NCBI GenBank assembly: GCA_016794485.1
Contig: JAEUHV010000081.1
Coordinates: forward strand, 3,133 to 67,132
Direction of reading: 5' to 3'
Length of the DNA stretch: 64,000 nt
Origin: Planctomycetota bacterium
Lineage (GTDB): Bacteria > Planctomycetota > UBA1135 > UBA2386
In this document: in pieces, positions 23,534-63,936 of the stretch
How positions within the stretch are numbered: position 1 is the stretch's first letter
Layout: each line of letters opens with the position of its first letter
The notes under the pieces: generated by a model
The model's database searches: none
Told to the model about the DNA's origin: nothing
What the model saw: the letters and a program-made list of their open reading frames with translations, nothing else
Made by a program: the position numbers and the translations under genes

Positions 23534-23580
23534 GCCGGAGTGGCGGAATCGGCAGACGCACAGGTTTCAAAACCCTGTGC
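23534..23580 (+). repeat. attL core: non-functional 5' half of tRNA-Leu(CAA)
   Basis: 23534-23572 is identical (39/39) to 63850-63888, and 45/47 through 23580. It has no variable arm, T arm or 3' acceptor strand. Confidence 0.9.
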
Positions 23581-41050: not shown

Positions 41051-42723
41051 TGAGCACCATTCCGCACAACCGGGCGCCGCTGGTGCGCATCCTCGACGCG
41101 AACGGTCGCCCGTTCCCGAGCACGCGCGCGTTGTCGTCCCGATCGGGCAACGGCTTCGCCGGCGCGAAGTCGCGATCGGTCGCGCTTCGCCACGACGCGG
41201 CCCGCATGGATCGGGTGCGGACGCGCGCGCGCAGCGGATCGGCCGACGGCGACCTGGCGCCGGACCTGCAGGTGCTGCGCGAGAAGTCGCGCGCCCTGGT
41301 TCGCGACGACGCGCACGGCGCGGCCGCCGTGCGAGTGCTGGTCGAGAACGTGGTCGGCGACGGCATCCGGCCGCAGGCCGCGGTGCACCCTGAGAACACC
41401 GGCCTGACGCAGAAGCAATGCGACGAGTGGAACCGTGCCGCCGAGCGGATCTGGTGCGAGTGGGCCGCCGCGCACGCCGACGCGAACGACATCGGTTCGT
41501 TCGACGACCTGACGCGCCAGGTCTACCGTTCACGCGTCGTCGACGGCGAGGCCCTCGTGCACCGCATCGAGGTCGACGGCGACGACCGCCGGCTGCGCAC
41601 GGCCTGGGAGATGATCGACGTCGACCGCCTGCAGGACCCCACCAGGCTGCAGGCGCTGGCGGTTCGGATGGGCGTCGAGATCGGCACGCGCGGCCAGCCG
41701 GTGGCCTACTGGATCACGCCCCACCACCCGGACGACCTGCGGTTCCTCAACGGCCAGATCGTCGGGGCGAACTGGCCCGAGCGCATCGAGCGCGTGCGGC
41801 TCGGAATCTGGAACGTGCTGCACGTGTTCCGCCGCGATCGCGCGGGGCAAAGCCGCGGCCTGCCCGCGCTGACCGCCGCGATGCCGCTGTTCGAGCACCT
41901 GCACCACTACCTCGACAGCGAGATCATCGCGGCGCGTGCGAACAGCAACGTCGCGATGTTCGTGCGCCGGCCGATCGACGATCGCGATCCGGACCTCGCG
42001 CCGGTCGACGACATCGGTCCGAACGGCGACGGCGAGATCGTCTACCACGAGACCCTCGAGCCGGGCACCATCGAGTATCTGAACGAGGGCGAGGAGATCC
42101 AGCCGTTCACGCCGAACCGGCCGGGCTCGACGTTCGACCCGTTCGTGACCCGCATCCTGCGCGCGATCTGCGCCGCGATGGGGCTGCCTTACGAGCTGGT
42201 CGTGAAGGACTTCGGCCAGATGACCTACAGCAGCTCGCGCGCCGTGCTGCTCGAGGCCCGCCGCGGGTTCACCAGCGAGCAGAACTCGCTGATCGGCAGC
42301 TGGCTGCAGCCAGCGTGGGAAACCGTCATGCGCGAGGCGATCGTGCGCGGGCTGCTGCCAGTCTATCCCGCGATGGTGCAGAACCTGCGCGCGTTCCTGG
42401 CCGCGCGGTGGATCCGCCCCGCCTGGGGCTGGGTCGATCCGGTGAAGGAGATCGAGTCGGCACGGCTCGCGGTCGAGGCCAACCTGTCGACGCCGGACAT
42501 CGAAGCCTCGCGCGCCGGCCTCGACGCGACCGACATCCTCGAGCAACGCGCCCGCTTCTACGTGCGCGCCCGCGAGATCGAAGCCCGCAACGGGCTCGAG
42601 CCAGGAACCCTCACGCGCGAGCGCTCCGAGCGCATCGAGGCCGTGCAACCCAAGGCCGGCAAGGGTGAGGAACAGAAGCCACCCGCCGGCAAGAAGACGG
42701 ACGACGAGGACGACGACCAATGA
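41050..42723 (+). CDS. portal protein, lambda gpB family
   Basis: 557 aa directly after the W-like region. Lambda-family portal pattern and an acidic C-terminal tail. Confidence 0.85.
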   Translation: MSTIPHNRAPLVRILDANGRPFPSTRALSSRSGNGFAGAKSRSVALRHDAARMDRVRTRARSGSADGDLAPDLQVLREKSRALVRDDAHGAAAVRVLVENVVGDGIRPQAAVHPENTGLTQKQCDEWNRAAERIWCEWAAAHADANDIGSFDDLTRQVYRSRVVDGEALVHRIEVDGDDRRLRTAWEMIDVDRLQDPTRLQALAVRMGVEIGTRGQPVAYWITPHHPDDLRFLNGQIVGANWPERIERVRLGIWNVLHVFRRDRAGQSRGLPALTAAMPLFEHLHHYLDSEIIAARANSNVAMFVRRPIDDRDPDLAPVDDIGPNGDGEIVYHETLEPGTIEYLNEGEEIQPFTPNRPGSTFDPFVTRILRAICAAMGLPYELVVKDFGQMTYSSSRAVLLEARRGFTSEQNSLIGSWLQPAWETVMREAIVRGLLPVYPAMVQNLRAFLAARWIRPAWGWVDPVKEIESARLAVEANLSTPDIEASRAGLDATDILEQRARFYVRAREIEARNGLEPGTLTRERSERIEAVQPKAGKGEEQKPPAGKKTDDEDDDQ

Positions 42724-44780
42724 CGACGACGAAGAAGGTCCCGCTGGAAGCCTGCACGTTCCTCCTGACCGAGGCCGGCCAGGATGCCGAGGTCCTGCTG
42801 GCGGCCGCCACCGCCGAGAGCGGCGGCGAGTCGCGGTTCGAGATCGCGGCCCTGTCGGGCAAGGTGATCGAGAACCACTGGTGGTGGGGCAACCTGGCCA
42901 TCGAGCTGTCGGGCATCAAGGGCAAGGGCAAGGTGCCGGTGCTGGTCGACCACAACGTCGGCCTGCGGATCGGCGTGTCGGACGACCGCGAGATCGACGC
43001 GAAGCGCGGCCTGGTCATGCGCGGCAAGTTCCTGAAGTCGAGCCCGCTCGCGGCCCAGGTGCGCGACGAATCGAAGGACGGGTTCCCCTGGGAGGCCTCG
43101 GTGCGCGTCGTGCCGCTGAAGGTCGAACAGATCCCGGAGGGCGTCGAGGCCGAGGTCAACGGGCAGAAGGTCCGGGGGCCGGGGCACATCTTCCGTCGGT
43201 CGCAGCTGCGGGAAGTCTCCTTCACCGCACTGGGTGCCGACCACAACACTTCCGCCGCGGCGCTGTCGGAGGCGTCGCCCGAACTCGCGGTGGAGTTCTC
43301 CACACTGGCGACGAACGAGGACACGATGACGAAGAAGATCGAAGGGGCACAGGTGCCGGAGCCGCAGGCGCCGAACGAAGTGCAGTTGGCCGAGCAGCAC
43401 AAGCAGGCCGGCATCAAGGCCGAGCGCGACCGCGTGGCCGCGATCCGGTCCGCCGGCACGCCCGAGCAGGCCGCGCTGGTCGACGAGCTGATCGTCGGGG
43501 GTGCCGAAATCTCGGCGGCCCAGGCGCGCTTGTCGGAAGACCTCCGGACGCGGTTCCGCGTCATGATGAACCAGTTCGCGAACCGCGAGGGCTCGCTGAG
43601 CGGCGGCAACCGCGGCGAGCAGGTCGACACCAAGCTGGCGCAGATCAACGCGCTCGAGGAAGGCCGCGACAAGTGGGCCGCGCAGTGGGACCACGATGCG
43701 AGCCTGCGCGCGCAGTTCCTGCGCAAGGACGACTTCCTGGCGTTGCGCGACGTCGAGCTGGCGGGCTGGAACCCCTCGCGGATCCGCCGGCGCGACGACA
43801 AGGGCCAGCCGTTGGCCGTGCGTCCGTGGGACGAGGTCGCGCTGGCCGCGTCGTCGCCCTCGAGCCCGGTCACGATCGCGGGAGTGCGCGCCGGCTACGC
43901 CGCCTCGCTGCAGGCCATGCTGGGCCTGTCGTGGGCGCGCCAGATCGCCAGCGCGTTCCCGACCAGCTCGCCGTCCGAGACCTACCCGTGGCTGCGCGCA
44001 GTGCCGAACCCGCGGAAGTGGGAAGGCGAACGGACCACGCAGGAGCTGCGGTCGGACGTCGTGACGATCGTCAACGACGACTACGAGAACTCGATCGAGT
44101 TCAAGGTGCCGGACCTGCGACGCGACAAGACGGGCCAGATCATGGCCCGGGCTGCCGACCTCGCGACCCGCGTCGCGTTTTTCCCCGAGCACCTGATCAC
44201 CGCGCTGCTGACCGCGAATGGCAACGCCTACGACAACGTCGCGTTCTTCGCGACGACGCACGCCGTCGGTTCGAGCGGCACGATCAACAACAACATCCTG
44301 GCCGCCGACGGCCTGGCTGGCGGCACGGCGCCGTCGACCGCCCAGATGAGCACCAACCTGCTGCTGATCCTGGGCAAGATGCTGGCGTTCCTCGACGACC
44401 AGGCGCAGCCGGTCAACGAGGCCGCTCGCCAGCTGATGGTCATGGTGCCGGCGAACCTCTACGGCGCGACGGTTGCGGCGATCAACGCGATGTTCACCAG
44501 CGCGTCGGCGACGAACCCGCTCGGCGAGCTGGCTCGCTACGGCTTCTCGTTCACGCCGGTGCTGAACGCGCGCCTGACCACGCAGAACCAGTTCTACGTG
44601 TTCCGCGCCGACGCGGGCATCCGGTCCCTGCTGCTGCAGGAGGAAGGCGTCAACCCGGTCGAGCTGGGCCCGGACAGCGAGCACGCGAAGAAGACGAACC
44701 GCGTGCTGTTCGGCCACGGCTGGGCCGGCGGCGTCGGCTACGGCCGGTTCGAGATGGCGATCCGGGGCACGACCTCGTGA
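42720..44780 (+). CDS. prohead protease (HK97/S78-like) - scaffold-like linker - Mu gpT-like major capsid protein, single ORF
   Basis: N-terminus VPVLVDHNVGLRIG..GLVMRGKF..EASVRV..EVSFTALGADHNT (S78 pattern). Middle coiled coil (AERDRVAAIRSAG..). C-terminal ~330 aa is gpT-like (WEGERTTQELRSDVVTIVNDDYENSIEFKVPDLRRDKTG...). Confidence 0.75.
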   Translation: MTTTKKVPLEACTFLLTEAGQDAEVLLAAATAESGGESRFEIAALSGKVIENHWWWGNLAIELSGIKGKGKVPVLVDHNVGLRIGVSDDREIDAKRGLVMRGKFLKSSPLAAQVRDESKDGFPWEASVRVVPLKVEQIPEGVEAEVNGQKVRGPGHIFRRSQLREVSFTALGADHNTSAAALSEASPELAVEFSTLATNEDTMTKKIEGAQVPEPQAPNEVQLAEQHKQAGIKAERDRVAAIRSAGTPEQAALVDELIVGGAEISAAQARLSEDLRTRFRVMMNQFANREGSLSGGNRGEQVDTKLAQINALEEGRDKWAAQWDHDASLRAQFLRKDDFLALRDVELAGWNPSRIRRRDDKGQPLAVRPWDEVALAASSPSSPVTIAGVRAGYAASLQAMLGLSWARQIASAFPTSSPSETYPWLRAVPNPRKWEGERTTQELRSDVVTIVNDDYENSIEFKVPDLRRDKTGQIMARAADLATRVAFFPEHLITALLTANGNAYDNVAFFATTHAVGSSGTINNNILAADGLAGGTAPSTAQMSTNLLLILGKMLAFLDDQAQPVNEAARQLMVMVPANLYGATVAAINAMFTSASATNPLGELARYGFSFTPVLNARLTTQNQFYVFRADAGIRSLLLQEEGVNPVELGPDSEHAKKTNRVLFGHGWAGGVGYGRFEMAIRGTTS

Positions 44781-49770: not shown

Positions 49771-51738
49771 GTGGCAACCAGTGAGAAGCGCACGCTCGAG
49801 ATCCGGGCCAAGCTCGTCGACCTGCTGACCGGGCCGCTGGGCGGCATGGACGGCGCGCTCGCGAAGTGGGTCAAGCGCGCCTACGGCTGGTTCCGCAACG
49901 TCGCGGGCGTCGTGCTGAACGTCAAGACGGCGGTGGCCGGGCTCGCCGCCTCGATCCTGTCGCTGTCGACGATCAAGGGGTTCGGCGAGCAGGCCGACGC
50001 GCTGTCGAAGCTGTCTACCGCGACCGGCGACACGATCGCGAACCTGTCGGAGGTCCAGGCCGCGTTCGACCTGGCGGGCGTGAAGGCCTCGGAGTTCGCG
50101 GACCTGACGAAGGCCCTGCTGGGCCAGGCGCGCAAGGCGCAGACCGACTCGACCGACAAGCTCGAGCAGTCCTTCGCCGCGTTGGGCATCACACTGAAGG
50201 ACCTGCAGAGCCTGGGCCCGACGCAGCTGTTCGAGAAGATGGCGGCGGGCCTCGAGAAGTTCGGGACCGAGCAAGAGAAGGCCGTCGCGCTCGGCAAGGT
50301 GCTGCCGAAGCAATTCCTCGAGCTGCTGCCGATCCTCGGTGGCGGGCTCGCGAACTTCCAGGCCGCAATCCTCGAGGCCCGTAAGGCCGGCGCGACGGTC
50401 ACCGAGCAGCAGGCGAAGGTCAGCGAACGCCTGAATGACTCGCTGTCGAAGGTCGGCATCGCGATCGGCGGGGTGTCGCGTGCCCTGATCGAGGAGTTCG
50501 GGCCGGACGCGATTGCGCTGTTCGAGCGGCTCGCCCGGTCGATCACCGAGAACCGGCAGGGCATCGTCGACGTCGCCGCGGCGATCGGCAGCGGCATGGT
50601 GGCCGCGGTCAACCTGGCGATCGAGGCCGTGATCGGGCTCGTGGGTGCGATCGAGAGCATTCCGGGCGTCAACCTGCTCGACACGGCCGAACTCGACGAG
50701 CAGATCCGCAAGCTCGACGAGTCGCGCGTCGCGGTGCGCAAGCGCATCGTGCGCGAGGGCGGGACCAACCGAAGCCCCGAACACCTGGCGGCGGTAAAGG
50801 AGATCCAGGACGAGATCAACCGCCTGACCGAGATCCGCAACCGCGGGCTCGCCGGCCAGCTGCGCGACTTCAAGGTGACCCTGTCGCAGGAGCTGCAGGC
50901 CGCCGCTGATTCGGTTCGCTCGGCGAGCAACGGCAGCGGCTACGGAACCGGGCGCGTCATCGAAGGCGGCCCCGCCACGGTGCTGCAGCCACCGAAGGGC
51001 AAGGCGATCGACGAGAGCGACGCTGCCGCGGTCGACGACTACCTCGCAGCGTGGGGCAAGATCGCGGACAAGTCGAAGGACCTGGCCGACAACGTCGACA
51101 AGGTGAAGCCCAAGCTCGCGTTCGAGGGCGGCTTCTTCGACGGGTTCAACGACGGCGCGAAGGACGCGATCGAGAGCCTGACCAGCTTCCAGCAGCTCGG
51201 CCGCGATGCTTCGAACGTGCTGGCCAGCGGCCTCGACGGCGTCGCGGGTGCGATCGTCGAAACGTCGATGGCCGTCGACGGCAGCTCGCAAGCGTGGAAG
51301 CGGCTGGGCCTGTCGGTGGTCGCCGAGCTGGGGCGCATCATCACGAAGCTGCTGATCGTGAAGGCCTTGCAGGCCGCCCTGGGCTACTCCGGTTCGGTCG
51401 CGCTCGAGGACGGCGGCGTCGTCGAAGGCAACATGGGCAAGCCGGTGCAGTCCCGTGCGTTCGCGCGCGGCGGCGTCACCAGCGGGCCCACGCTCGCGCT
51501 GTTCGGCGAAGGCCGCAACCGCGAGGCGTTCGTCCCCTTGCCTGACAACCGGTCGATCCCGGTCACGCTGAACGGCGCCGGCGGCGGCACGAACTTCTCG
51601 TTCACGATCAACGCGGTCGACGGCCGCGACGTGCAGCGCATGCTGCTCGAGCAGCGCGAGACGATCATGGCCGTGTTCGCGCACGACCTGAAGCACAAGA
51701 CCGAGGTGCGCCAGATGGTGCACAAGGCGGCCAGGTGA
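49771..51738 (+). CDS. tape measure protein
   Basis: GTG start. 655-aa helical Ala/Leu-rich protein with hydrophobic segments, in the position after G/GT. Confidence 0.85.
   Translation: MATSEKRTLEIRAKLVDLLTGPLGGMDGALAKWVKRAYGWFRNVAGVVLNVKTAVAGLAASILSLSTIKGFGEQADALSKLSTATGDTIANLSEVQAAFDLAGVKASEFADLTKALLGQARKAQTDSTDKLEQSFAALGITLKDLQSLGPTQLFEKMAAGLEKFGTEQEKAVALGKVLPKQFLELLPILGGGLANFQAAILEARKAGATVTEQQAKVSERLNDSLSKVGIAIGGVSRALIEEFGPDAIALFERLARSITENRQGIVDVAAAIGSGMVAAVNLAIEAVIGLVGAIESIPGVNLLDTAELDEQIRKLDESRVAVRKRIVREGGTNRSPEHLAAVKEIQDEINRLTEIRNRGLAGQLRDFKVTLSQELQAAADSVRSASNGSGYGTGRVIEGGPATVLQPPKGKAIDESDAAAVDDYLAAWGKIADKSKDLADNVDKVKPKLAFEGGFFDGFNDGAKDAIESLTSFQQLGRDASNVLASGLDGVAGAIVETSMAVDGSSQAWKRLGLSVVAELGRIITKLLIVKALQAALGYSGSVALEDGGVVEGNMGKPVQSRAFARGGVTSGPTLALFGEGRNREAFVPLPDNRSIPVTLNGAGGGTNFSFTINAVDGRDVQRMLLEQRETIMAVFAHDLKHKTEVRQMVHKAAR
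51598..51693 (+). repeat. direct repeat copy A (3' end of tape measure gene)
   Basis: 51598-51659 is identical (62/62) to 62515-62576. Similarity with a few mismatches continues to 51693 / 62610. Confidence 0.95.
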
Positions 51739-53505: not shown

Positions 53506-54195
53506 ATGGCCAAGACGCTCCCGCCCACCTTCCTGTCCGAGATCGAACGCCCGCAAGGCGTCAACGAGCCGCTCTGGCTCGTCGAGATGGAGCTGGACCA
53601 GGGCGACGTCGGCCGCCCGCCAGTTCTGCTGCGCGTGTGCGACGGCGTGCAGGAGATCACGTGGCCGGTCGGCGCCCCCACCACCACGACCTGGACCCCG
53701 TTCGCGTTCGAGTTCTCGCCGATCGAGCAGACGAAGGAAGGCGACCTGTCGACCGTCGAGCTGACCGTCGACAACAGCGCGCGCACCCTGATGCGGTTTC
53801 TGCACGACGCGCACGGCCTCGAGGGCAACCGGGCCACGCTCTACCTCGTCTACCGGCACGGCCTCGTGATCGCCTACCCGAACCACGAGTTCGAGAAGTT
53901 CGACATGGAAGTGCTCGCCGTCGGCGCGAGCGACGAGGCCGTCACGTTCCGGCTCGGCCTGCCCAACTGGTTCGAGGTCATGTCGCCGGTCGACCGCTAC
54001 GTGCCGAAGCGTTGCCGGCACGACTTCGGCAGCGGCGACTGCGGCTACGTCGTCAACGCCTTCGGCGCGTTCTCGCGTTGTCCGAAGACGATCGAGGCGT
54101 GCAACGCGCGAGCGCTCGACATGGCCGCGCGCGGCCTTCCGTCGGTCCTGCCGGGCAACTTCGGCGGCCACCCAGGAATCAGCGACACCCGATGA
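53506..54195 (+). CDS. minor tail protein L-like (C-terminal Cys cluster)
   Basis: 229 aa. C-terminal CRHDFGSGDCGY...CPKTIEAC resembles the gpL / DUF2163-type Cys cluster. In the position after the M-like gene. Confidence 0.6.
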   Translation: MAKTLPPTFLSEIERPQGVNEPLWLVEMELDQGDVGRPPVLLRVCDGVQEITWPVGAPTTTTWTPFAFEFSPIEQTKEGDLSTVELTVDNSARTLMRFLHDAHGLEGNRATLYLVYRHGLVIAYPNHEFEKFDMEVLAVGASDEAVTFRLGLPNWFEVMSPVDRYVPKRCRHDFGSGDCGYVVNAFGAFSRCPKTIEACNARALDMAARGLPSVLPGNFGGHPGISDTR

Positions 54196-54578
54196 TCACG
54201 CTCGAGCAGATCCTGCGCACGCGATACGCGATCGACGGCGACGAGGTCGGCGTCGCGCTGTCGTGCCTCGGCGCCGTGCGCGCGGTCGCGCGCCTGCGAG
54301 GCCTGCCGCCGCCCGACGGGTGGCTGTCCATTCGCGCGGCGTGGGAACGCGGCGAGGTCGAGACGGCCAGCGGGTTCCCGGCCGGCTGGGTGCGTCAGCC
54401 GGCCGGCGCGCAGCTGCTCGACGGCGACGTGCTGGTCTTCCAGCGAGCCGGCCGCCAGGGGTGCGGCATCGTGCACGAGGGCTGGGTCGTCACTGCCGAC
54501 ACGGCGCCAGGCGTCTACCGGTTGCCGCTGTCGCGCTGGTCGATCGCGCCTGCCGAGGTGTGGAGGTTCGTCGCATGA
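54192..54578 (+). CDS. gpK-like tail protein (NlpC/P60-related)
   Basis: ATG 54192 in the frame of track ORF 53637..54578. Pattern GDVLVFQRAGRQGCGIVHEGWVVT resembles the NlpC/P60-like region of gpK or GTA g14. Assigned by position. Confidence 0.5.
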   Translation: MITLEQILRTRYAIDGDEVGVALSCLGAVRAVARLRGLPPPDGWLSIRAAWERGEVETASGFPAGWVRQPAGAQLLDGDVLVFQRAGRQGCGIVHEGWVVTADTAPGVYRLPLSRWSIAPAEVWRFVA

Positions 54579-57500
54579 TCCGCGTGCTCGTGCGTCAGGG
54601 CGTGCTGGGCCAGCAGGTCGATGCGTTCGACGTGCCGGCCGCGGCGTGCACCAGCGCCAGGTCGTTGCTGCAGCAGTTCGCGTCCTTGCTGCCGCGCAGT
54701 GTGCCGATCACGGTCGCGGTGAACGGCGCACGGTTGCGCGACGAGCAGCTCGACGACCCGATCCCGGACGGCCAGCAGGTCGTGCTGCTGCCGACCACGG
54801 GCGACGTCGTGACCATCATCGTGACGGTGCTGATCCAGGTCGCGGTCGCGGCCGCGGTCAACTACGTCGCGCAGCAGCTGGCGCCCCGCCCGAAGCCCCA
54901 GGGCGTCGCGCAGGAACGCGGCGACGAGAGCAGCTCGACCTACGCCTGGGACGGCCTGACCACGAACTACGGGCCCGGCCTGCCGATCCCGTGGGTGTAT
55001 GGCCGGCACGCTGTCGGCGGCCAGGTGATCTGGTCGGACGTGATCGCGTCGCGCGCCAACGGTGCAGCCGCGCTCGACGATCGCCTGCGCATGGTCCTGT
55101 CGCTGTGCGATGGGCCCATCTACCGGTTCGGCGACATCCTGGCCGGGAGCATCGACGGCCTCGGCGGCCTGGTCGGCCAGCCAGCTGGGCCCGCGATCCC
55201 GTCCGACCTGCGGATCAACGACACCCTGATCCCGCCCGCCGACCCGAACCCAGGTGTGCGGGTTTGGCTTCGGCCAGGCACGAAGGACCAGCCGCCGTTG
55301 CCCGCGCCGTTCACCGGCGTGGCCACGACCGAGACCCTCAACGTTCCCCTGACGGGCGTCATCGGCCTGGCCTACGTGCACACGATCGCGGACGCATCGG
55401 ACCTCGCGATGATCCGGGCGGTCGTCGCGTTTCCGAGCGGCCTCTACGCCGTGGGCCCCAACGGCCAGCCGGTCGCACACAGCGCGACGTTCACGGTCGG
55501 CTGGCGCCTGCCTGGTCAGACCGGGCCCGGCACGTCGCTGCCGACGAACGTCCCGAACGCGGGCGCGGGCGGGCCGTTCCTCGGCTACCACGCGGTCACG
55601 TGGTCGGCGGACGCGAGCGCGAACACGCCGGGCGGCATCACCAATTTCCCGACCGGCCTGTCGGGCCCGATCGAGCTGCTGTTCTTCTTCTCGTCTGTCT
55701 CGGGCACGTCGATCGTGAACGCGGCCGTGCTGCGCGAGCTGACCACGGTCAAGTCGCACACGCTGCGCTACCCTGGCGAGGTCCTGCTGGCGATCGAAGT
55801 CGCTGCCGGATCGCGCTTCAGCGGCGGCCGGCCGCAGGTCTACCACCGGATCGACGGCGCGCTGGTGCGCGTGTGGGATGCGACGAACGGGTGGTCGCCG
55901 CGGTGCTGGGAAGTGCCGGCCGCGCCGCACAACTTCAACACGCACCCGCCTGGGCGGAACCCCGCCTGGTGTCTGCTGGACTTCCTGCTGAACCGCTGGG
56001 GGCTCGGGCGCTACCTAACCGAGGACAAGATCGACCTGCCGGCGTTCCGGCGCTGGGCGGCGTTCTGCGACTCGGACCCGAACCCGGGCGACCCGTGGGG
56101 CGAGCCGTCGCATTGCGTCGACGTCGTCGGCGACCAGCCGCGCACGGCGTGGGAGTGGGTGCTGCTGTTCTGCTCGACCGGTCGCGCCACGCCGGTGATG
56201 CGGAACGGCAAGATCAGCGTGGTCTACCAATACCGCGACGCGCACGGCGACGCCGGCATCACGGTGCCGGCGAAGGAATCGCTGCAGCTGCTGACCAGCG
56301 GCAACTGCGAGGCCCTCGAGGCACGCCTGGTGCCGAAGCGCTCGCGCGCCACCATCCTCGAGTTCCAGTTCCTGAACGAGGAGACGGGTTACGCGCAGGA
56401 CGTCTACCCGGTCGAAGACGACGAGAGCACGTTCAACGACCCGACCGCGCTGCGCCGCGAGCAGACGCGCGTCGAGACGATCCAGGCGTTCGGCGTCACG
56501 CGCGAGTCGCAGCTGTTCCGCGAGGGCCGCTGGCGCCACCGCATCGCGCGCCTGGTCGACTGGGAGATCACGGGCCGCACCGGACCGTGGGCCCTCGCGG
56601 CCGAGGTCGGCGACCTGGTCGACGTCGAGCACGAGCTGCTGCGCCCGTTCGCGACCGACGTGCCGCTGACCCAGCAGGTGACCACCGGCGGCACCGCCAC
56701 GACCACGATCGAGGTCGACCACCACCTGACCGGCAGCGGCCTGCAGTTCGTCGGCCGCGGGACGGACGGCAAGCCGAAGCGTTCGAACATCACGAGCTAC
56801 GTCAACGCGCTCGTCGGCGGCAAGAAGCGCTCGACCCTGACGCTGGCCACGGCCGTGACCGTCGCGACCGGCGCGACGTGCGTCGTGGGCAAGATCGACA
56901 AGCTGACCGAGACCTACGAGCTGGTGTCGATCACGCAGGGCAAAGACCTGGTGCGCGAGTTCCGCGCGATCCAGTGGACCCCGACGGCCTACGACCCGAT
57001 CACGCGCGACGAGTTCCAGGGCATCCTCGAGCCAGGCGACATCGCGGAAGGCACCGGCGAAGACCTGCTCGACAACGGTGGATCCGACACGCTGCCGCCC
57101 GAGGTCTACGGCATCCGGGTGTCGGCGCAGGTCGACGGCTCGCACCTGGTCACGTGGGCGCGCCCGGCCAGCAAGGCCGGCACGTGGGCTCGCGTCTACG
57201 TGCGGCCGGCAGACCTGGTCGGTGCGTGGGTCCTGGTCGCGGGCACCGAGCTGTCCGAAGTCGCGGTGCGCGGGCTCGCGGTCGGGACCAGCTACGTCGT
57301 GTCGGTCGCGCTCGAGAACCGCGGCGGCGACCCGGTGCCGCCTGACCTGGGCGACCAGATCACCGTGCTGCCCGAGGAGTTCCCGCCGTTCGCCCCGCCC
57401 GCGGTGACGAACGCGCGCGCGGTGCTGCTCGGCGACGGCGTGCAGCTCGAGTGGAACCAGATCGAGCAGCGAGACCTGGACACGTTCGAGGTTCGGTGCG

Positions 57501-58234
57501 GCAGCAACTGGCCGGCGGCCGCCGTGCTGGTGCGCGAGAAGGCCCCTCGCGTGGTGCTGGCCGACCCGCCGGCCGGGCCCGTGTTCCTGATCGCGGCGCG
57601 ATCGCGGTCGGGCCTGTATGGCGGAATCGCGCAGGTCACGAACCCGAACTGGACGCCGCGCAACACGGTGTCGGTGCTCGACGAGAACGACCTGGCGCCG
57701 TCGCCGGCCGGCTCGCACAGCGGCACCGCGTGGAACAGCACGGCCGGCGTGATCGAGCTGGCGGCCGGTCAGCTGACCGGCACCTACGAAGGCCTCGCGC
57801 AGGACATCGGCTACCAGGCGCCGTTCTTCTGGCAGGTGCGCGTCGATCGCGAGGAGTTCGAGGACCTGACCGTCGCCGACCTGGCGTTCGCGTGCGGGTC
57901 CGGCGAAGGACGGTGGCGCCGCACGACCGGCCGGCCCGCCAGCGCGGCCGCGCCTGGGCTCGGCTGGCACATGCGGTGCCAGGACCTGACGGGCACCCTG
58001 GTCGTCGATCTGCCGCGGGACCTTCTGGCGCGCGGCTTCCGTGGCGTGACGGGCACGCACACGCGCGTGCTGGTCGAGTCGCGCTTCTACGTCAGCGGCG
58101 TCTGGACGGCCTACGCGGCCCACGTCGACCGCGTCGTGGTCGCGAGCCGCATGCAGGTCCGCCTGACGCTCGGCCGCCGATCCCTGACCTACCGCGCGCG
58201 CGTGCCCATGTTGACCTACCGCGCGTTCCTCTGA
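54575..58234 (+). CDS. tail tip / host-specificity protein: gpI-like N-terminus fused to gpJ-like body
   Basis: ATG 54575 in track ORF 54263..58234. The N-terminal ~110 aa is ubiquitin-like plus a hydrophobic stretch (VVTIIVTVLIQVAVAAAVNYV), as in gpI. gpJ-like sequence follows (YAWDGLTTNYGPGLPIPWVYGRHAVGG...). Confidence 0.8.
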   Translation: MIRVLVRQGVLGQQVDAFDVPAAACTSARSLLQQFASLLPRSVPITVAVNGARLRDEQLDDPIPDGQQVVLLPTTGDVVTIIVTVLIQVAVAAAVNYVAQQLAPRPKPQGVAQERGDESSSTYAWDGLTTNYGPGLPIPWVYGRHAVGGQVIWSDVIASRANGAAALDDRLRMVLSLCDGPIYRFGDILAGSIDGLGGLVGQPAGPAIPSDLRINDTLIPPADPNPGVRVWLRPGTKDQPPLPAPFTGVATTETLNVPLTGVIGLAYVHTIADASDLAMIRAVVAFPSGLYAVGPNGQPVAHSATFTVGWRLPGQTGPGTSLPTNVPNAGAGGPFLGYHAVTWSADASANTPGGITNFPTGLSGPIELLFFFSSVSGTSIVNAAVLRELTTVKSHTLRYPGEVLLAIEVAAGSRFSGGRPQVYHRIDGALVRVWDATNGWSPRCWEVPAAPHNFNTHPPGRNPAWCLLDFLLNRWGLGRYLTEDKIDLPAFRRWAAFCDSDPNPGDPWGEPSHCVDVVGDQPRTAWEWVLLFCSTGRATPVMRNGKISVVYQYRDAHGDAGITVPAKESLQLLTSGNCEALEARLVPKRSRATILEFQFLNEETGYAQDVYPVEDDESTFNDPTALRREQTRVETIQAFGVTRESQLFREGRWRHRIARLVDWEITGRTGPWALAAEVGDLVDVEHELLRPFATDVPLTQQVTTGGTATTTIEVDHHLTGSGLQFVGRGTDGKPKRSNITSYVNALVGGKKRSTLTLATAVTVATGATCVVGKIDKLTETYELVSITQGKDLVREFRAIQWTPTAYDPITRDEFQGILEPGDIAEGTGEDLLDNGGSDTLPPEVYGIRVSAQVDGSHLVTWARPASKAGTWARVYVRPADLVGAWVLVAGTELSEVAVRGLAVGTSYVVSVALENRGGDPVPPDLGDQITVLPEEFPPFAPPAVTNARAVLLGDGVQLEWNQIEQRDLDTFEVRCGSNWPAAAVLVREKAPRVVLADPPAGPVFLIAARSRSGLYGGIAQVTNPNWTPRNTVSVLDENDLAPSPAGSHSGTAWNSTAGVIELAAGQLTGTYEGLAQDIGYQAPFFWQVRVDREEFEDLTVADLAFACGSGEGRWRRTTGRPASAAAPGLGWHMRCQDLTGTLVVDLPRDLLARGFRGVTGTHTRVLVESRFYVSGVWTAYAAHVDRVVVASRMQVRLTLGRRSLTYRARVPMLTYRAFL

Positions 58235-60830: not shown

Positions 60831-61157
60831 GTGCCGCCCCGCCGCGACACCCGCCGGCACATCGGCCCGTGGCTGGTCGCGGAGGTCGCGACCAGGTTCG
60901 ACGTCGCCCCGGCGAGCGCGAAGGCGATCGCGTCGTTCGTGCTCGAGTGCGTCGTGCAGGACGCCCGGAACCTGGCCGAAGCGCTCGTGCGCGTCGACCC
61001 GGACCTCGGCATCGCGGTGCGCACGGTGATCGCGCGGCTGGACTACGGCGCCGGACGGCTCGGTGGTTCGGCCGGCGCCTCGACGGGCCTGGCGTCGGTC
61101 AGCATGACCCCACCCAGCAAGCCGGCCACGCCGAGCAAGAGGGCCGCCAGGTCGTAG
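60831..61157 (+). CDS. hypothetical protein (doubtful 3' portion)
   Basis: Track ORF. Its last ~115 nt overlap the minus-strand membrane-protein gene and encode low-complexity sequence. Confidence 0.25.
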   Translation: MPPRRDTRRHIGPWLVAEVATRFDVAPASAKAIASFVLECVVQDARNLAEALVRVDPDLGIAVRTVIARLDYGAGRLGGSAGASTGLASVSMTPPSKPATPSKRAARS

Positions 61158-61306
61158 GCCAGAACGCGCGCGGTCATCTGCTCCATGCCGTTCGCCAGGG
61201 TGCGCCCCTGCAGGAGCCACGTGGCGTCGTTGTAGAGGGTGAACCCCGCGACGCCGCACAGCGGCAGCGCGAACAGGATCAGAACCAGCCCGGCGAAGAC
61301 CCTCAT
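61043..61306 (-). CDS. two-TM membrane protein downstream of the repressor
   Basis: ATG 61306 (MRVFAGLVLILFALPLCGVAGF...) in track ORF 61043..61363. Second hydrophobic helix LAALLLGVAGLLGGVML. Confidence 0.5.
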   Translation of the reverse strand: MRVFAGLVLILFALPLCGVAGFTLYNDATWLLQGRTLANGMEQMTARVLAYDLAALLLGVAGLLGGVMLTDARPVEAPAEPPSRPAP

Positions 61307-61319
61307 GCGGCCCGGGATG

Positions 61320-61706
61320 CTACTCGGGGCAGCTGCCCGACCTGTCACGCGCGCGCGCGGCACGGCGCGGGTGGTGGGCGGCCGGCGGGGTCAGAGCGCG
61401 ACGAAGACCAGCGGTCGCCCGGGCGCGTAAGGCATCGATGGCGCAGACCTGCCCCAGCACGAACTGCAGCAGATCGTTTGCGTCGGCCGAGCTGAGGCCC
61501 TCGCGAGCCGGCTCGCCGACCAGGTCCGGCAGGGTGGTTTCGTAGAGGCGGGCGAGCTGCAAGGCGGACAAGACCCCGATCTCGGCGGTCCCTTGTTCCC
61601 ACCGCTGCAGGGTGCTGTCAGCCACCCCGATCGCCGCCGCCGCCGCCTTCCGGATCAGGCCGCGACCTTCTCGGATCGATCGCAGGCGATCGCCGATTCG
61701 ATCCAT
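61320..61706 (-). CDS. XRE/cI-type HTH repressor
   Basis: ATG 61706 (MDRIGDRLRSIREGRGLIRKAAAAAIGVADSTLQRWEQG..). Typical HTH_3 domain. No S24 peptidase domain recognised. Confidence 0.75.
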   Translation of the reverse strand: MDRIGDRLRSIREGRGLIRKAAAAAIGVADSTLQRWEQGTAEIGVLSALQLARLYETTLPDLVGEPAREGLSSADANDLLQFVLGQVCAIDALRARATAGLRRALTPPAAHHPRRAARARDRSGSCPE

Positions 61707-61814
61707 GTCGAGGTCCGAGGGTGCGGCGTGGCGGTTCACGGCAAAGGGCAAGGACCAGAAATCTAACGCCGCAACCGGCGGCAATGTCCGGCATTGGGTC
61801 GAATCGACGCCGAA

Positions 61815-61850
61815 AGAGCGTTTCCGCCTTGTGCAAGTCGGAAACGCTCT
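61815..61850. promoter_or_regulatory. perfect 12-bp inverted repeat in the repressor / Xis divergent region (operator candidate)
   Basis: AGAGCGTTTCCG (61815-61826), 12-nt spacer, CGGAAACGCTCT (61839-61850). Lies in the least GC-rich part of the window, 16 nt before ATG 61866. Confidence 0.45.
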
Positions 61851-61865
61851 GTAACCATCGAACCC

Positions 61866-62018
61866 ATGGAAAACGACGAAACGACCGATGGCACCGGCCG
61901 CATCGGCACGCTGTTCGGCGGGGCCTGCACGGCGATCGGGATCCTGCTGGCCGTGCTGACTGGCACCGGCCTGATCGAGCCGCTGGCCGCCGCGGTGGCC
62001 GCCTGGGTGGCCAAGTGA
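61866..62018 (+). CDS. 50-aa hydrophobic peptide
   Basis: ATG 61866 in track ORF 61794..62018. One predicted TM helix (LFGGACTAIGILLAVLTGTGLI). GTGA overlap with the next gene. Confidence 0.35.
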   Translation: MENDETTDGTGRIGTLFGGACTAIGILLAVLTGTGLIEPLAAAVAAWVAK

Positions 62019-62320
62019 CCACCAGCGCCACCCTGGCGGCCGTGGGGACCGACGACGAGCTGGTCGAGCTGCGGGCCGTCGCGGCCACGCTGAAGACCAC
62101 GTGCGACAAGCTGCGCCGGCTGTCGTTGCGCGGCGAGTTCCCGCCCCTGCTGCGCGTCACGCGGAAGCACCTGCTGGTCCGGCGCGCCGAGTTCGAGGCC
62201 TGGCAGGCCGGCCGCTGGACCACCGCCGAGGCGACCCGCACGGCGATCGTCGTCGCGGCCGCGCGCGGCGAGGTCAAGAACCGGCGGCGCAAGGTTCGCC
62301 CGGGGGCCTCTGGCGCATGA
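62015..62320 (+). CDS. excisionase-like HTH DNA-binding protein
   Basis: GTG 62015 in the frame of track ORF 61721..62320. ELRAVAATLKTTCDKLRRLSLRGEFPPLLRVTRKHLLVRRAEFEAWQAG resembles Xis/MerR-type HTH proteins. Confidence 0.5.
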   Translation: MTTSATLAAVGTDDELVELRAVAATLKTTCDKLRRLSLRGEFPPLLRVTRKHLLVRRAEFEAWQAGRWTTAEATRTAIVVAAARGEVKNRRRKVRPGASGA

Positions 62321-62649
62321 AACCGAAGGCCCACATCGTGGCGCACGACGGGCGCGGCCCGCGGCCGTTCGGCTTCGAGTGCCTGCACTGCGGATCGGTG
62401 CATGCTCTGCAGGTGCCCATCAGTCTGGCGATGTGGGGCGAGGCGGCGAAGGCCTTCCACGTCCTGCACCGGGACTGCAAGGAACGCCGCGCCGGGGCCC
62501 GCCGGCAGGCGGACTCGTTCACGATCAACGCGGTCGACGGCCGCGACGTGCAGCGCATGCTGCTCGAGCAGCGCGAAACGACCAGGGCCGTGTTCGCGCA
62601 CGGGCAGAAGCTGCGGCGCCAGGACTTGAGGAAGGGAGACGAGGGCTAG
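62317..62649 (+). CDS. small Cys/His protein whose C-terminus duplicates the tape measure C-terminus
   Basis: ATG 62317 (ATGA overlap). N-terminus CLHCG...HRDC. C-terminus SFTINAVDGRDVQRMLLEQRETTRAVFAH matches tape measure residues SFTINAVDGRDVQRMLLEQRETIMAVFAH. Confidence 0.5.
   Translation: MKPKAHIVAHDGRGPRPFGFECLHCGSVHALQVPISLAMWGEAAKAFHVLHRDCKERRAGARRQADSFTINAVDGRDVQRMLLEQRETTRAVFAHGQKLRRQDLRKGDEG
62515..62610 (+). repeat. direct repeat copy B
   Basis: Matches 51598-51693 at an offset of 10,917 bp: 62 identical nt, then scattered mismatches. Confidence 0.95.
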
Positions 62650-63755
62650 CCGTGATCCGCCGCCGCCTGACCACCCTCGACGTAGCGAAGCCGACCCGAG
62701 GCCGCGTGCAGGTCCGCCGCGACCAGGTGGACGTAGCGCTGGGTGGTGGCGTAGCTGCTGTGGCGCAGCATCGCCTGCACGGTGCCGGCCGGCACGCCGG
62801 CCCGGATCAGGTTCGTGGCCAGGCTGTGGCGCAAGGCGTGCGGGTGGAATCGGCGATCGCCGAAGCGCTTCGCCCAGCGGCGGAACACGCGATCGATCGC
62901 CTGCACGCGCCGCTTCTCGGACTCGCCGGCGACGATGAAGCCGCCGCGCGCGCGCTCGACCAGGCGCTGCGCGACGGCCAGGATCGGCGCGGTGATCGGC
63001 GCGGGCACGTCGTCCGTCTTGCCGCGCACCAGAAACACGCTGCGGCCCAGGTCGAAGTCGGCCGCGTGCAGCCGCGCCAGCTCGGCCCGGCGCAGGCCGG
63101 AGTAGGCCAGGAAGATGACCAGGTCGAAGTCGTCGGGCGCGACCGTGCGCAGGTGCTCGAGGCGCGCGGCCAGCTCGGCCTCGCCGAGCACGTCGGGCGA
63201 GGCCTGGCGTGGTTCGGGCCAGCTGGCGAGCGGCACCGGATTCTCGCCGCGGAACCACTGCCGCTGCGGCATCGAGCACCAGCGCACCAGGCGGTTGAGC
63301 CAGCGGCGGTAGTGCTGGATCGTGCGCGCCGCGAAGCCGCCGCGCTGCGCGAGAGCGACGAGCTGCTGCAGCACGCCGGGCGTCAGGCGAGCCAGCGGCA
63401 GGTCGCCGTCGATGATCCGGAACACGGCCTTCGCCTGGGCCTTGTAGAACTGGACCGTGCCGTCGCGCCGCAGGCCGACCAGCTCGCAATGCATCGCCTC
63501 GGCGGCCTCGCGCAGCGTCTTCGTCACGAACGGCGTCGCGGCGTCGCCGGCGCGCAGCTCGATCGCGTCGCGGTGCGCGGCCAGCGGCTCGTCGCGCCAG
63601 GGGCCGTAGCAACGGCGCCGGCCGATCATGGCCCAGGCGCGGTAGGCGGTGACGCGCCGCTGGTCGGTCGGCAGCTCGCGATCGCGGGGATCGTGCCGCA
63701 CCTGCACGAACGGAGGAAGACGCCTGCCGCGTCCCGTGCCGCGTCTGTTCGCCAT
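62646..63755 (-). CDS. int: tyrosine integrase
   Basis: ATG 63755 (MANRRGTGRGRRLPPF...). Catalytic contexts ..RRAELARL.., HALRHSLAT, LRHSSYATTQRYVH. Adjacent to the tRNA. Confidence 0.9.
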   Translation of the reverse strand: MANRRGTGRGRRLPPFVQVRHDPRDRELPTDQRRVTAYRAWAMIGRRRCYGPWRDEPLAAHRDAIELRAGDAATPFVTKTLREAAEAMHCELVGLRRDGTVQFYKAQAKAVFRIIDGDLPLARLTPGVLQQLVALAQRGGFAARTIQHYRRWLNRLVRWCSMPQRQWFRGENPVPLASWPEPRQASPDVLGEAELAARLEHLRTVAPDDFDLVIFLAYSGLRRAELARLHAADFDLGRSVFLVRGKTDDVPAPITAPILAVAQRLVERARGGFIVAGESEKRRVQAIDRVFRRWAKRFGDRRFHPHALRHSLATNLIRAGVPAGTVQAMLRHSSYATTQRYVHLVAADLHAASGRLRYVEGGQAAADHG

Positions 63756-63772
63756 GTTTCGCACCCTACCAT

Positions 63773-63798
63773 GTGGCCGAACTTGTGGCCACGTGGGC
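63773..63798 (+). repeat. putative integrase arm-type sites (right arm)
   Basis: GTGGCC (63773), GTGGCC (63785), GTGGGC (63793). Same orientation as the left-arm copies. Confidence 0.4.
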
Positions 63799-63806
63799 AA
63801 CAACTG

Positions 63807-63836
63807 TTGACACCATGCACGACGTAACCCTAGGCT
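63807..63836 (+). promoter_or_regulatory. putative phage-borne promoter for the reconstituted tRNA-Leu
   Basis: TTGACA (63807-63812), 18 nt, TAGGCT (63831-63836). The tRNA 5' end is at 63850. Confidence 0.35.
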
Positions 63837-63849
63837 GCACCAAGCCCTC

Positions 63850-63936
63850 GCCGGAGTGGCGGAATCGGCAGACGCACAGGTTTCAAAAACCTGCGCCCTC
63901 ACGGGCGTGCGGGTTCAAGTCCCGCCTCCGGCACCA
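63850..63936 (+). tRNA. tRNA-Leu (anticodon CAA), class II with long variable arm, CCA encoded
   Basis: Manual fold. Acceptor GCCGGAG/CTCCGGC. D arm GTGGCGGAATCGGCAGACGC. Anticodon stem CAGGT/ACCTG with loop TTCAAAA. Variable arm CGCCCTCACGGGCGTG. T arm GCGGG-TTCAAGT-CCCGC. Discriminator A plus CCA. Confidence 0.9.

Follow-up and report, generated by a model that had tools for sequence, protein, structure and literature searches.

A tape measure gene segment fused in frame to a zinc-ribbon-type gene in a Planctomycetes prophage, probably as a recombination scar

The window analysed here, a stretch of 64,000 nucleotides at 70.9% GC from the metagenome-assembled genome (MAG) of an uncultured Planctomycetes host, contains a prophage in which a small gene beside the integrase, ORF110 (62317..62649, + strand), encodes a chimeric protein of 110 aa. 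Its N-terminal domain is zinc-ribbon-like, and most of the remainder is a near-identical, in-frame copy of a segment from the C-terminus of the phage's own tape measure protein (TMP). In our view ORF110 is likely to be a mosaic joint, or scar, specific to its lineage, which arose by recombination, illegitimate or ectopic, within a hot, variable slot of a temperate Planctomycetes siphovirus. Such a scar had been one of the readings offered in an earlier note on this DNA, and it agrees with four features of the locus: the chimera is a singleton, the TMP piece sits where members of the N-terminal family typically end, the gene occupies a variable slot, and the copy is partial and degraded. On present evidence this is ordinary mosaicism that raises no new question, and it provides a clean, datable example of a phage gene gaining a new C-terminus through an in-frame patch from a structural gene.

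The repeated segment and its source

A repeat search found a single outstanding direct repeat in the window, formed by 51597-51694 and 62514-62611 (both on the + strand), with 92 of 98 nt identical (94%) and a start-to-start spacing of 10,917 nt. The first copy lies in the TMP gene (49771..51738, + strand), where it encodes residues 610-641 of 655; the second encodes residues 67-98 of ORF110 in the same codon phase. Aligned in register, the two share 63 identical bases (51597-51659 = 62514-62576), followed by 35 nt with six mismatches. One 59-mer taken from the exact part was counted exactly two times in the window and was missing from all 100 shuffled versions, far beyond what chance would give. 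The near-identical copy in the same reading frame, as described in the earlier note, is thus confirmed. Outside the 98 nt no nucleotide similarity was detected on either side by what is a weak test (p ~0.5 and ~0.7). Formally, 63 bp of direct identity could mediate a 10.9-kb deletion between the copies.

Going from the TMP copy to the ORF110 copy, the differences are GAG>GAA, which is synonymous, then I>T, M>R, D>G (by 2 nt) and L>Q, so that five of the six nucleotide changes are non-synonymous. All six lie at one end of the repeat tract (combinatorial P ~0.003). Simple drift is insufficient to explain 63 perfect bases next to a diverged remainder, and an extra assumption is needed: the contrast suggests that the event was recent and drew on a donor allele with small differences, or that gene conversion acted afterwards, and it could instead reflect selection that keeps the start of the TMP helix.

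In having a repeat length of ~100 nt, differences that cluster and one member at a structural gene's 3' end, the pair resembles the template and variable repeats of a diversity-generating retroelement (DGR), or a silent cassette from which the TMP C-terminus is varied by gene conversion. The six differing sites in the TMP copy, however, are G, T, T, A, C and T and are adenine-specific in neither direction, and scans of selected prophage ORFs against Pfam and PHROG gave no reverse transcriptase, in agreement with the earlier note on both points. The resident TMP moreover keeps the I and M of its nearest relative and is therefore not a hypervariable partner. The DGR reading is largely refuted, and neither it nor the cassette retains more than a trace of credibility.

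An assembly artefact also has to be considered, since the sequence derives from a MAG and the left joint, between the N-terminal domain and the repeat, is present in one assembly only; a chimeric path through the shared k-mer could produce such a joint. We judge this very improbable. Both flanks of the copy stand in correct synteny (the Xis-like gene to the left, integrase and att to the right), the copy has six private differences, and an independent assembly of a public run yielded Logan contig SRR10555717_65001, which equals window 62552-63888 at 100% identity and joins the integrase to the diverged, ORF110-specific part of the copy. On one side this contig runs 25 nt into the exact repeat and stops, on the other it stops at the end of the att repeat, as expected of a k-mer graph at true repeats. 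The idea of an RNA element or antisense RNA at 62500-62660 was dropped: both strands of this interval fold worse than shuffled sequences (z ~+1), and Rfam, which matched tRNA only, has no family there.

The TMP itself is recognised by PHROG tape-measure families (E down to 1e-16) and by weak lambda-type matches to PF09718 and TIGR01541. More than 300 IMG/VR contigs conserve its C-terminal 145 residues as far as the stop codon, which indicates that the TMP copy is native and that the transfer went from TMP to ORF110. A TMP-family HMM, built from relatives with the window left out, matches ORF110 at residues 64-101 only, corresponding to profile positions 94-131 of 142. The full module spans ~140 aa and is characterised by GEG..EAFVPLPD, an invariant Arg and a terminal V-x-R-A-A; ORF110 does not contain it, as its copy is without the invariant Arg647, the terminal motif and everything upstream of profile position 94. 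A MAFFT alignment that placed the ORF110 tail at the very end of the TMP by way of an 'RQ' motif was unsupported by the HMM and was dropped, and a tblastn alignment to one relative (L001) that ran past the stop codon was a chance match. When a 55-column profile of the TMP C-terminus was run against a set of 5.8 billion proteins it returned nothing at E<=1e-3, being too short to reach significance there.

Within the copied part, I632T and L640Q turn polar two positions that are hydrophobic in 22 of 22 and 21 of 22 relatives, respectively. M633R, on the other hand, shifts the copy toward the family consensus, with R in 11 of the 22. The resident TMP shares its I and M with the nearest relative (L008), so that either the ORF110 copy changed or it came from another allele.

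ORF110 and its operon

The prophage extends over ~23.5-63.9 kb (40.3 kb), its bounds set by an exact 39-nt direct repeat that forms the attL core (23534..23572, + strand) and the attR core (63850..63888, + strand). The attR core is the 5' 39 nt of a tRNA-Leu(CAA) gene (63850-63936). Between the two lie genes for ParB, a ParB-methyltransferase, large terminase, portal, protease-capsid, TMP and tail proteins; the tail module resembles that of lambda, its gpL-, gpI- and gpJ-like matches lying at 53506-58234.

Near the right end a cI-like HTH_3 repressor (61320..61706, - strand; PF01381 and PHROG repressor families) is separated by a divergent 160-bp intergenic region (61707-61865) from three genes on the + strand. 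A perfect 12-nt inverted repeat in this region, AGAGCGTTTCCG / CGGAAACGCTCT (61816..61850), is a candidate operator; a scan for promoters and terminators gave nothing useful. The first operon gene (61866..62018, + strand) encodes a 50-aa protein with one hydrophobic segment and overlaps the next by GTGA. The second, a Xis-like HTH_17 gene of 101 aa (62015..62320, + strand; PF12728, phrog_66), has a stop that overlaps the start of ORF110 (ATGA). ORF110 is the third and last gene and translationally coupled, and its stop codon overlaps (CTAG) that of the convergent tyrosine integrase (62646..63755, - strand; PF00589 at 4e-24).

Since these overlapping genes lie on the strand opposite the repressor, ORF110 is outside the repressor and integrase transcripts. 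The gene arrangement speaks against the expression from the lysogeny region that had been proposed for it; we would expect ORF110 to be expressed with the early/excision operon. Repression in lysogens would be expected of this operon, and ORF110 is probably silent there.

The ORF110 product is identical (100%) to NCBI protein JNK15_03215, and its reading frame has a GC3 of 0.87-0.97. Residues 1-55 (62317..62481, + strand) form a CxxC...HxxC zinc-ribbon-like domain, residues 56-66 a linker, and residues 67-98, perhaps to 101, the TMP-derived segment. Contrary to the earlier description, the protein does not end with the shared peptide: 12-15 further residues follow, without demonstrable TMP origin, and the last 9-12 residues lie outside the TMP-derived segment in the division given above. 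In the prediction by AF2, a beta-beta-beta-alpha domain (pLDDT >90) is followed by a linker, disordered over residues 62-72, and then by a single long helix from 75 to 107, with the tail at pLDDT ~80. At a GC content of 71%, this DNA has all three + frames open over the greater part of the fragment, and the open frame of the tail is therefore no evidence of selection. Signal peptide, lipobox and membrane segment are absent (the maximum 19-residue Kyte-Doolittle hydropathy is 1.07 and the N-terminus is not hydrophobic). The protein has no match in Pfam, PHROG, NCBIfam or PADLOC and no likeness to known exclusion or defence proteins.

The N-terminal domain gave no Pfam, PDB-sequence or Foldseek match. 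It belongs to a family of small phage proteins: a profile search over 1.84 billion cluster representatives found 627 at E<=1e-3, and ORF110 matches the family profile with E=6e-30. In the family alignment C22 and C25 are invariant and H51 and C54 nearly so, with a conservation of at least 90%. The best matches have a median length of 68 aa and, past HxxC, a median of 11 residues. In ORF110 56 residues follow HxxC, a tail length reached by only 10 of 146 family members, and the TMP-derived part begins 12 residues past HxxC, approximately where typical members end. The protein accordingly exceeds the stand-alone size of the family, ~55-80 aa, in which little follows HxxC. Its closest homologues, four metagenomic proteins of 60-98 aa and 47-54% identity, match residues 1-55 only (HIVAHDG..PFGFECLHCG...HRDC) and have unrelated tails. 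Homologue genes sit in phage early operons near RdgC, HerA-like, ParB or methylase genes; ORF110 too is found in an overlapping early operon, and its integrase-adjacent position is atypical. The zinc-binding domain is probably the functional part of ORF110. The family as a whole, small zinc-ribbon phage proteins in 627 clusters, is widespread and uncharacterised and has no curated model.

The slot between the Xis-like gene and the integrase

The earlier note had asked whether related prophages keep the chimeric ORF. It is absent from them, and the corresponding slot of syntenic relatives is either empty or filled with unrelated cargo. Neither the 5.8-billion-protein collection nor IMG/VR nor JGI metagenomes yielded a protein or locus that combines both halves; a scan with ORF110 returned nothing from IMG/VR and only relatives of the N-terminal domain from JGI metagenomes. 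Compared by blastn, 61300-63800 matched none of the GenBank phages, and an integrase scan of a genome-contig collection without the source MAG gave only matches of at most 30% identity.

Syntenic relatives were found through the integrase, on contigs of up to ~41 kb whose integrases are 62-72% identical to that of the window. They share the order tail, cI, small TM ORF, HTH_17, convergent int, ParB. The Xis-like gene is 53-64% identical and the cI-like repressor 44-60% identical to their counterparts in these phages, and counterparts of the 50-aa gene, with 41-57 aa, occupy the same position in three of the contigs (L096, L098 and L099). Next to int all carry the 39-nt tRNA-Leu core with 0-2 mismatches and without a full tRNA, which identifies it as attP and the phages as unintegrated. 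Together they make up a group of Planctomycetes-type phages that are syntenic and use the 5' half of tRNA-Leu for integration.

We defined the slot as the interval between the stop of the HTH_17 (Xis-like) gene and the stop of int, and compared it in five lineages that share the attP core. It measures 2 nt in L099-101 and is reduced to overlapping stops in L105. One unrelated 69-aa ORF fills it in L106/107, whereas L096/098 have 747-753 nt with an unrelated 74-aa ORF and a 161-aa protein with a signal-peptide-like N-terminus. In the window the slot has 325 nt and is ORF110. No gene of the zinc-ribbon family and no TMP-like fragment lies within 10 kb of int in these syntenic relatives. Because its content differs among syntenic lineages, the slot is a variable cargo site and ORF110 as a whole is cargo; the TMP patch is located at the distal joint of this cargo. 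The genes carried in the slot are candidate lysogenic-conversion genes.

Origin and possible function of the tape-measure-derived tail

According to the mosaicism model of Hendrix and Hatfull, illegitimate recombination creates novel junctions in phage genomes, and temperate phages have slots for morons or other cargo. The ORF110 locus is similar to such mosaic joints and cargo slots in having a variable slot at a fixed position, an unrelated gene within it and a short ectopic patch at the joint, all of it lineage-specific. It differs in that the patch comes from the phage's own TMP gene and extends a protein in frame, and in that it leaves a perfect direct repeat of 63 bp at a distance of 10.9 kb from its source.

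The chimera may thus have formed as follows, although the order of events and the mechanism are reconstructed from the arrangement as it now stands. A small zinc-ribbon-type early gene, of the ~60-70 aa kind found in the early replication operons of other phages, would have landed in the slot between the Xis-like gene and int. At the 3' joint of this cargo, a piece of ~100 nt, drawn from the 3' region of the TMP gene of the phage itself or of a very close sibling, would have been copied in. The patch would have been in frame by chance, with the native stop replaced or displaced, so that translation may now continue across the TMP-derived segment to the stop that overlaps the integrase stop. 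The tail would then most likely be a neutral or slowly decaying passenger. Several observations count against this account, namely the clustering of the differences, the change of M633R toward the consensus, the fusion in frame and the long helix predicted for the tail. Nor does any close relative carry a zinc-ribbon gene in this slot, from which the sequence before the insertion and the mechanism of the joint could be reconstructed.

Alternatively, the tail could be a functional mimic of the TMP helix which pairs with TMP C-termini or with tip and hub proteins, and by doing so acts as a poison when related superinfecting phages assemble their tails or eject their DNA, or modulates assembly of the phage's own tail. 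A mimic or decoy of this kind had been the other proposal of the earlier note. It accords with the 22 consecutive residues, in frame, that equal TMP 610-631 and with the predicted helicity of the tail. In the tail-tip lumen of lambda, a coiled coil of three helices is built from gpH residues 818-842 (of 853) and supported by gpI (PMC10721106). The copied segment comes from the same relative place in its TMP (the last ~5%), is predicted to be helical and belongs to a phage with a lambda-like tail module. The likeness is positional only, however: comparison of the last 50 TMP residues with gpH showed no sequence homology, and ORF110 carries only part of the module.

TMP-directed exclusion does have a precedent in Ltp of the Streptococcus phage TP-J34, which is reported to target the TMP (PMC3952083, citing Bebeacua 2013). 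As with ORF110, the gene of Ltp is small and adjoins the integrase of a temperate siphovirus, and there is a conceptual link to the TMP. But Ltp is a surface-tethered lipoprotein with a signal peptide that acts outside the membrane and is transcribed while the phage resides as a prophage, from the int/repressor strand (PMC3952083), whereas ORF110 is on the opposite strand, in the repressor-divergent operon that is probably silent in lysogens, and has neither an export signal nor a membrane anchor. The two proteins show no homology.

In addition to these differences, the mimic has against it that no second chimera turned up in any of the collections searched, that relatives have the slot empty or otherwise filled, that the copy has lost the invariant Arg and the conserved C-terminal end while two conserved hydrophobic positions have become polar, and that no defence family is matched. 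The proposal of a mimic or decoy therefore gained no positive support from our searches, and we regard it as unlikely. More specifically, selection may have kept the 22-residue start of the helix, with ORF110 acting as a dominant-negative 'poison subunit' or as cargo injected from the tail lumen; this we hold to be quite improbable.

A related possibility is that the TMP helix serves as a virion-targeting tag which brings the zinc-ribbon protein into the tail bundle, to be injected with the DNA. The architecture would suit such a role, an early-type domain leading by way of a disordered linker to a TMP helix, as would the occurrence of the family in early operons. The singleton status and the decay of the copy argue against it as they do against the mimic, and an early rather than late operon would provide the wrong timing for virion assembly. 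We know of no precedent for a virion-targeting tag of this kind and give it very little credence. Taken together, a functional role of the tail as TMP-helix mimic or tag ranges from unlikely to quite improbable.

If the tail were functional, capture of a structural helix would represent a route to interference proteins, and the poison-subunit or cargo reading, if true, would amount to a new way to make an anti-phage or virion-targeted protein. The by-products of the analysis are perhaps more useful: the zinc-ribbon family, the syntenic tRNA-Leu phages and the variable cargo slot.

Cargo between the Xis-like gene and the integrase

The slot in which ORF110 lies, the space between the stop of the Xis-like HTH_17 gene and the convergent stop of the tyrosine integrase gene, holds other cargo in relatives (L096:11033-11744, L098:11120-11837 and L106:5978-6187). 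One such item is a 69-74-aa ORF on the strand of the Xis-like gene. Contigs L096 and L098 additionally encode, on the integrase strand, a protein of 161-163 aa whose N-terminus resembles a signal peptide; this makes a more plausible candidate for a lysogenic-conversion gene.

The piece of ORF110 derived from the tape measure protein also resembles part of the integrase genes of the same two contigs: window positions 62526-62563 are identical at 32 of 38 nt to L096:10834-10871 and L098:10921-10958. The matched stretch encodes the integrase 'TVQRMLRH' box, the peptide in common being VQRML. The integrase of the window has QAML at this position and is encoded on the strand opposite to the tape-measure-derived piece. 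The match is probably due to chance, and it has no obvious role at the ORF110 joint. Weak matches (E 0.02-0.8) of the C-terminal tape measure profile (window 51541-51660, residues about 590-630) to framework 3 of antibody light chains align IPxRFSGSGSGTDFTLTISS..EDVA of the antibodies with IPVTLxGGGGGTxVNINITAMDSKDVA of the tape measure; we rejected homology here, the strand-turn-strand pattern being convergent.

Attachment site and related integrases

Phages usually integrate into the 3' part of a tRNA gene, but the att core of this prophage (window 23534-23572 and 63850-63888) corresponds to the 5' 39 nt of tRNA-Leu(CAA), reaching the anticodon loop. Since this core adjoins the integrase gene with 0-2 mismatches and without the full tRNA in nine related contigs (L096-L101, L105-L107), it marks the attP of a phage lineage there.

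The closest relative of the window integrase (73-76% identical) is encoded on L102, a 5.4-kb contig from which the tRNA-Leu core is absent. Here (L102:490-4787) a tape measure gene, complete and encoding 682 aa, precedes the integrase gene on the same strand at a distance of 1.2 kb. The interval holds an ORF of 191 aa and an HTH_17 gene of the same direction, and no other tail genes surround the tape measure gene. L102 may represent the remains of a prophage, an element of another kind or an assembly error.

Repressor region and further phage genes

The classical site of a prophage-expressed exclusion or moron gene is immediately downstream of the repressor on the same strand. Directly downstream of the cI-like repressor gene of the window, and on its strand, a gene (61043-61363, reverse strand) encodes a 106-aa protein without any family match that has strongly hydrophobic segments (maximum hydropathy 2.46). 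The 160-bp region of lower GC content separating the divergent repressor gene from the ORF110 operon contains a perfect 12-nt inverted repeat, AGAGCGTTTCCG / CGGAAACGCTCT (61816-61850), a candidate operator.

Elsewhere in the window, a head maturation protease and a major head protein are matched by the N-terminal and C-terminal halves, respectively, of a single 686-aa ORF (42720-44780), which may represent a fused protease-capsid gene. The early operons of several related phages contain Pfam matches to the Acb2/Tad1 hairpin, resembling anti-CBASS/Thoeris sponges (L004:3168-3389, L005:6117-6563, L096:1342-1605 and L098:1105-1440).
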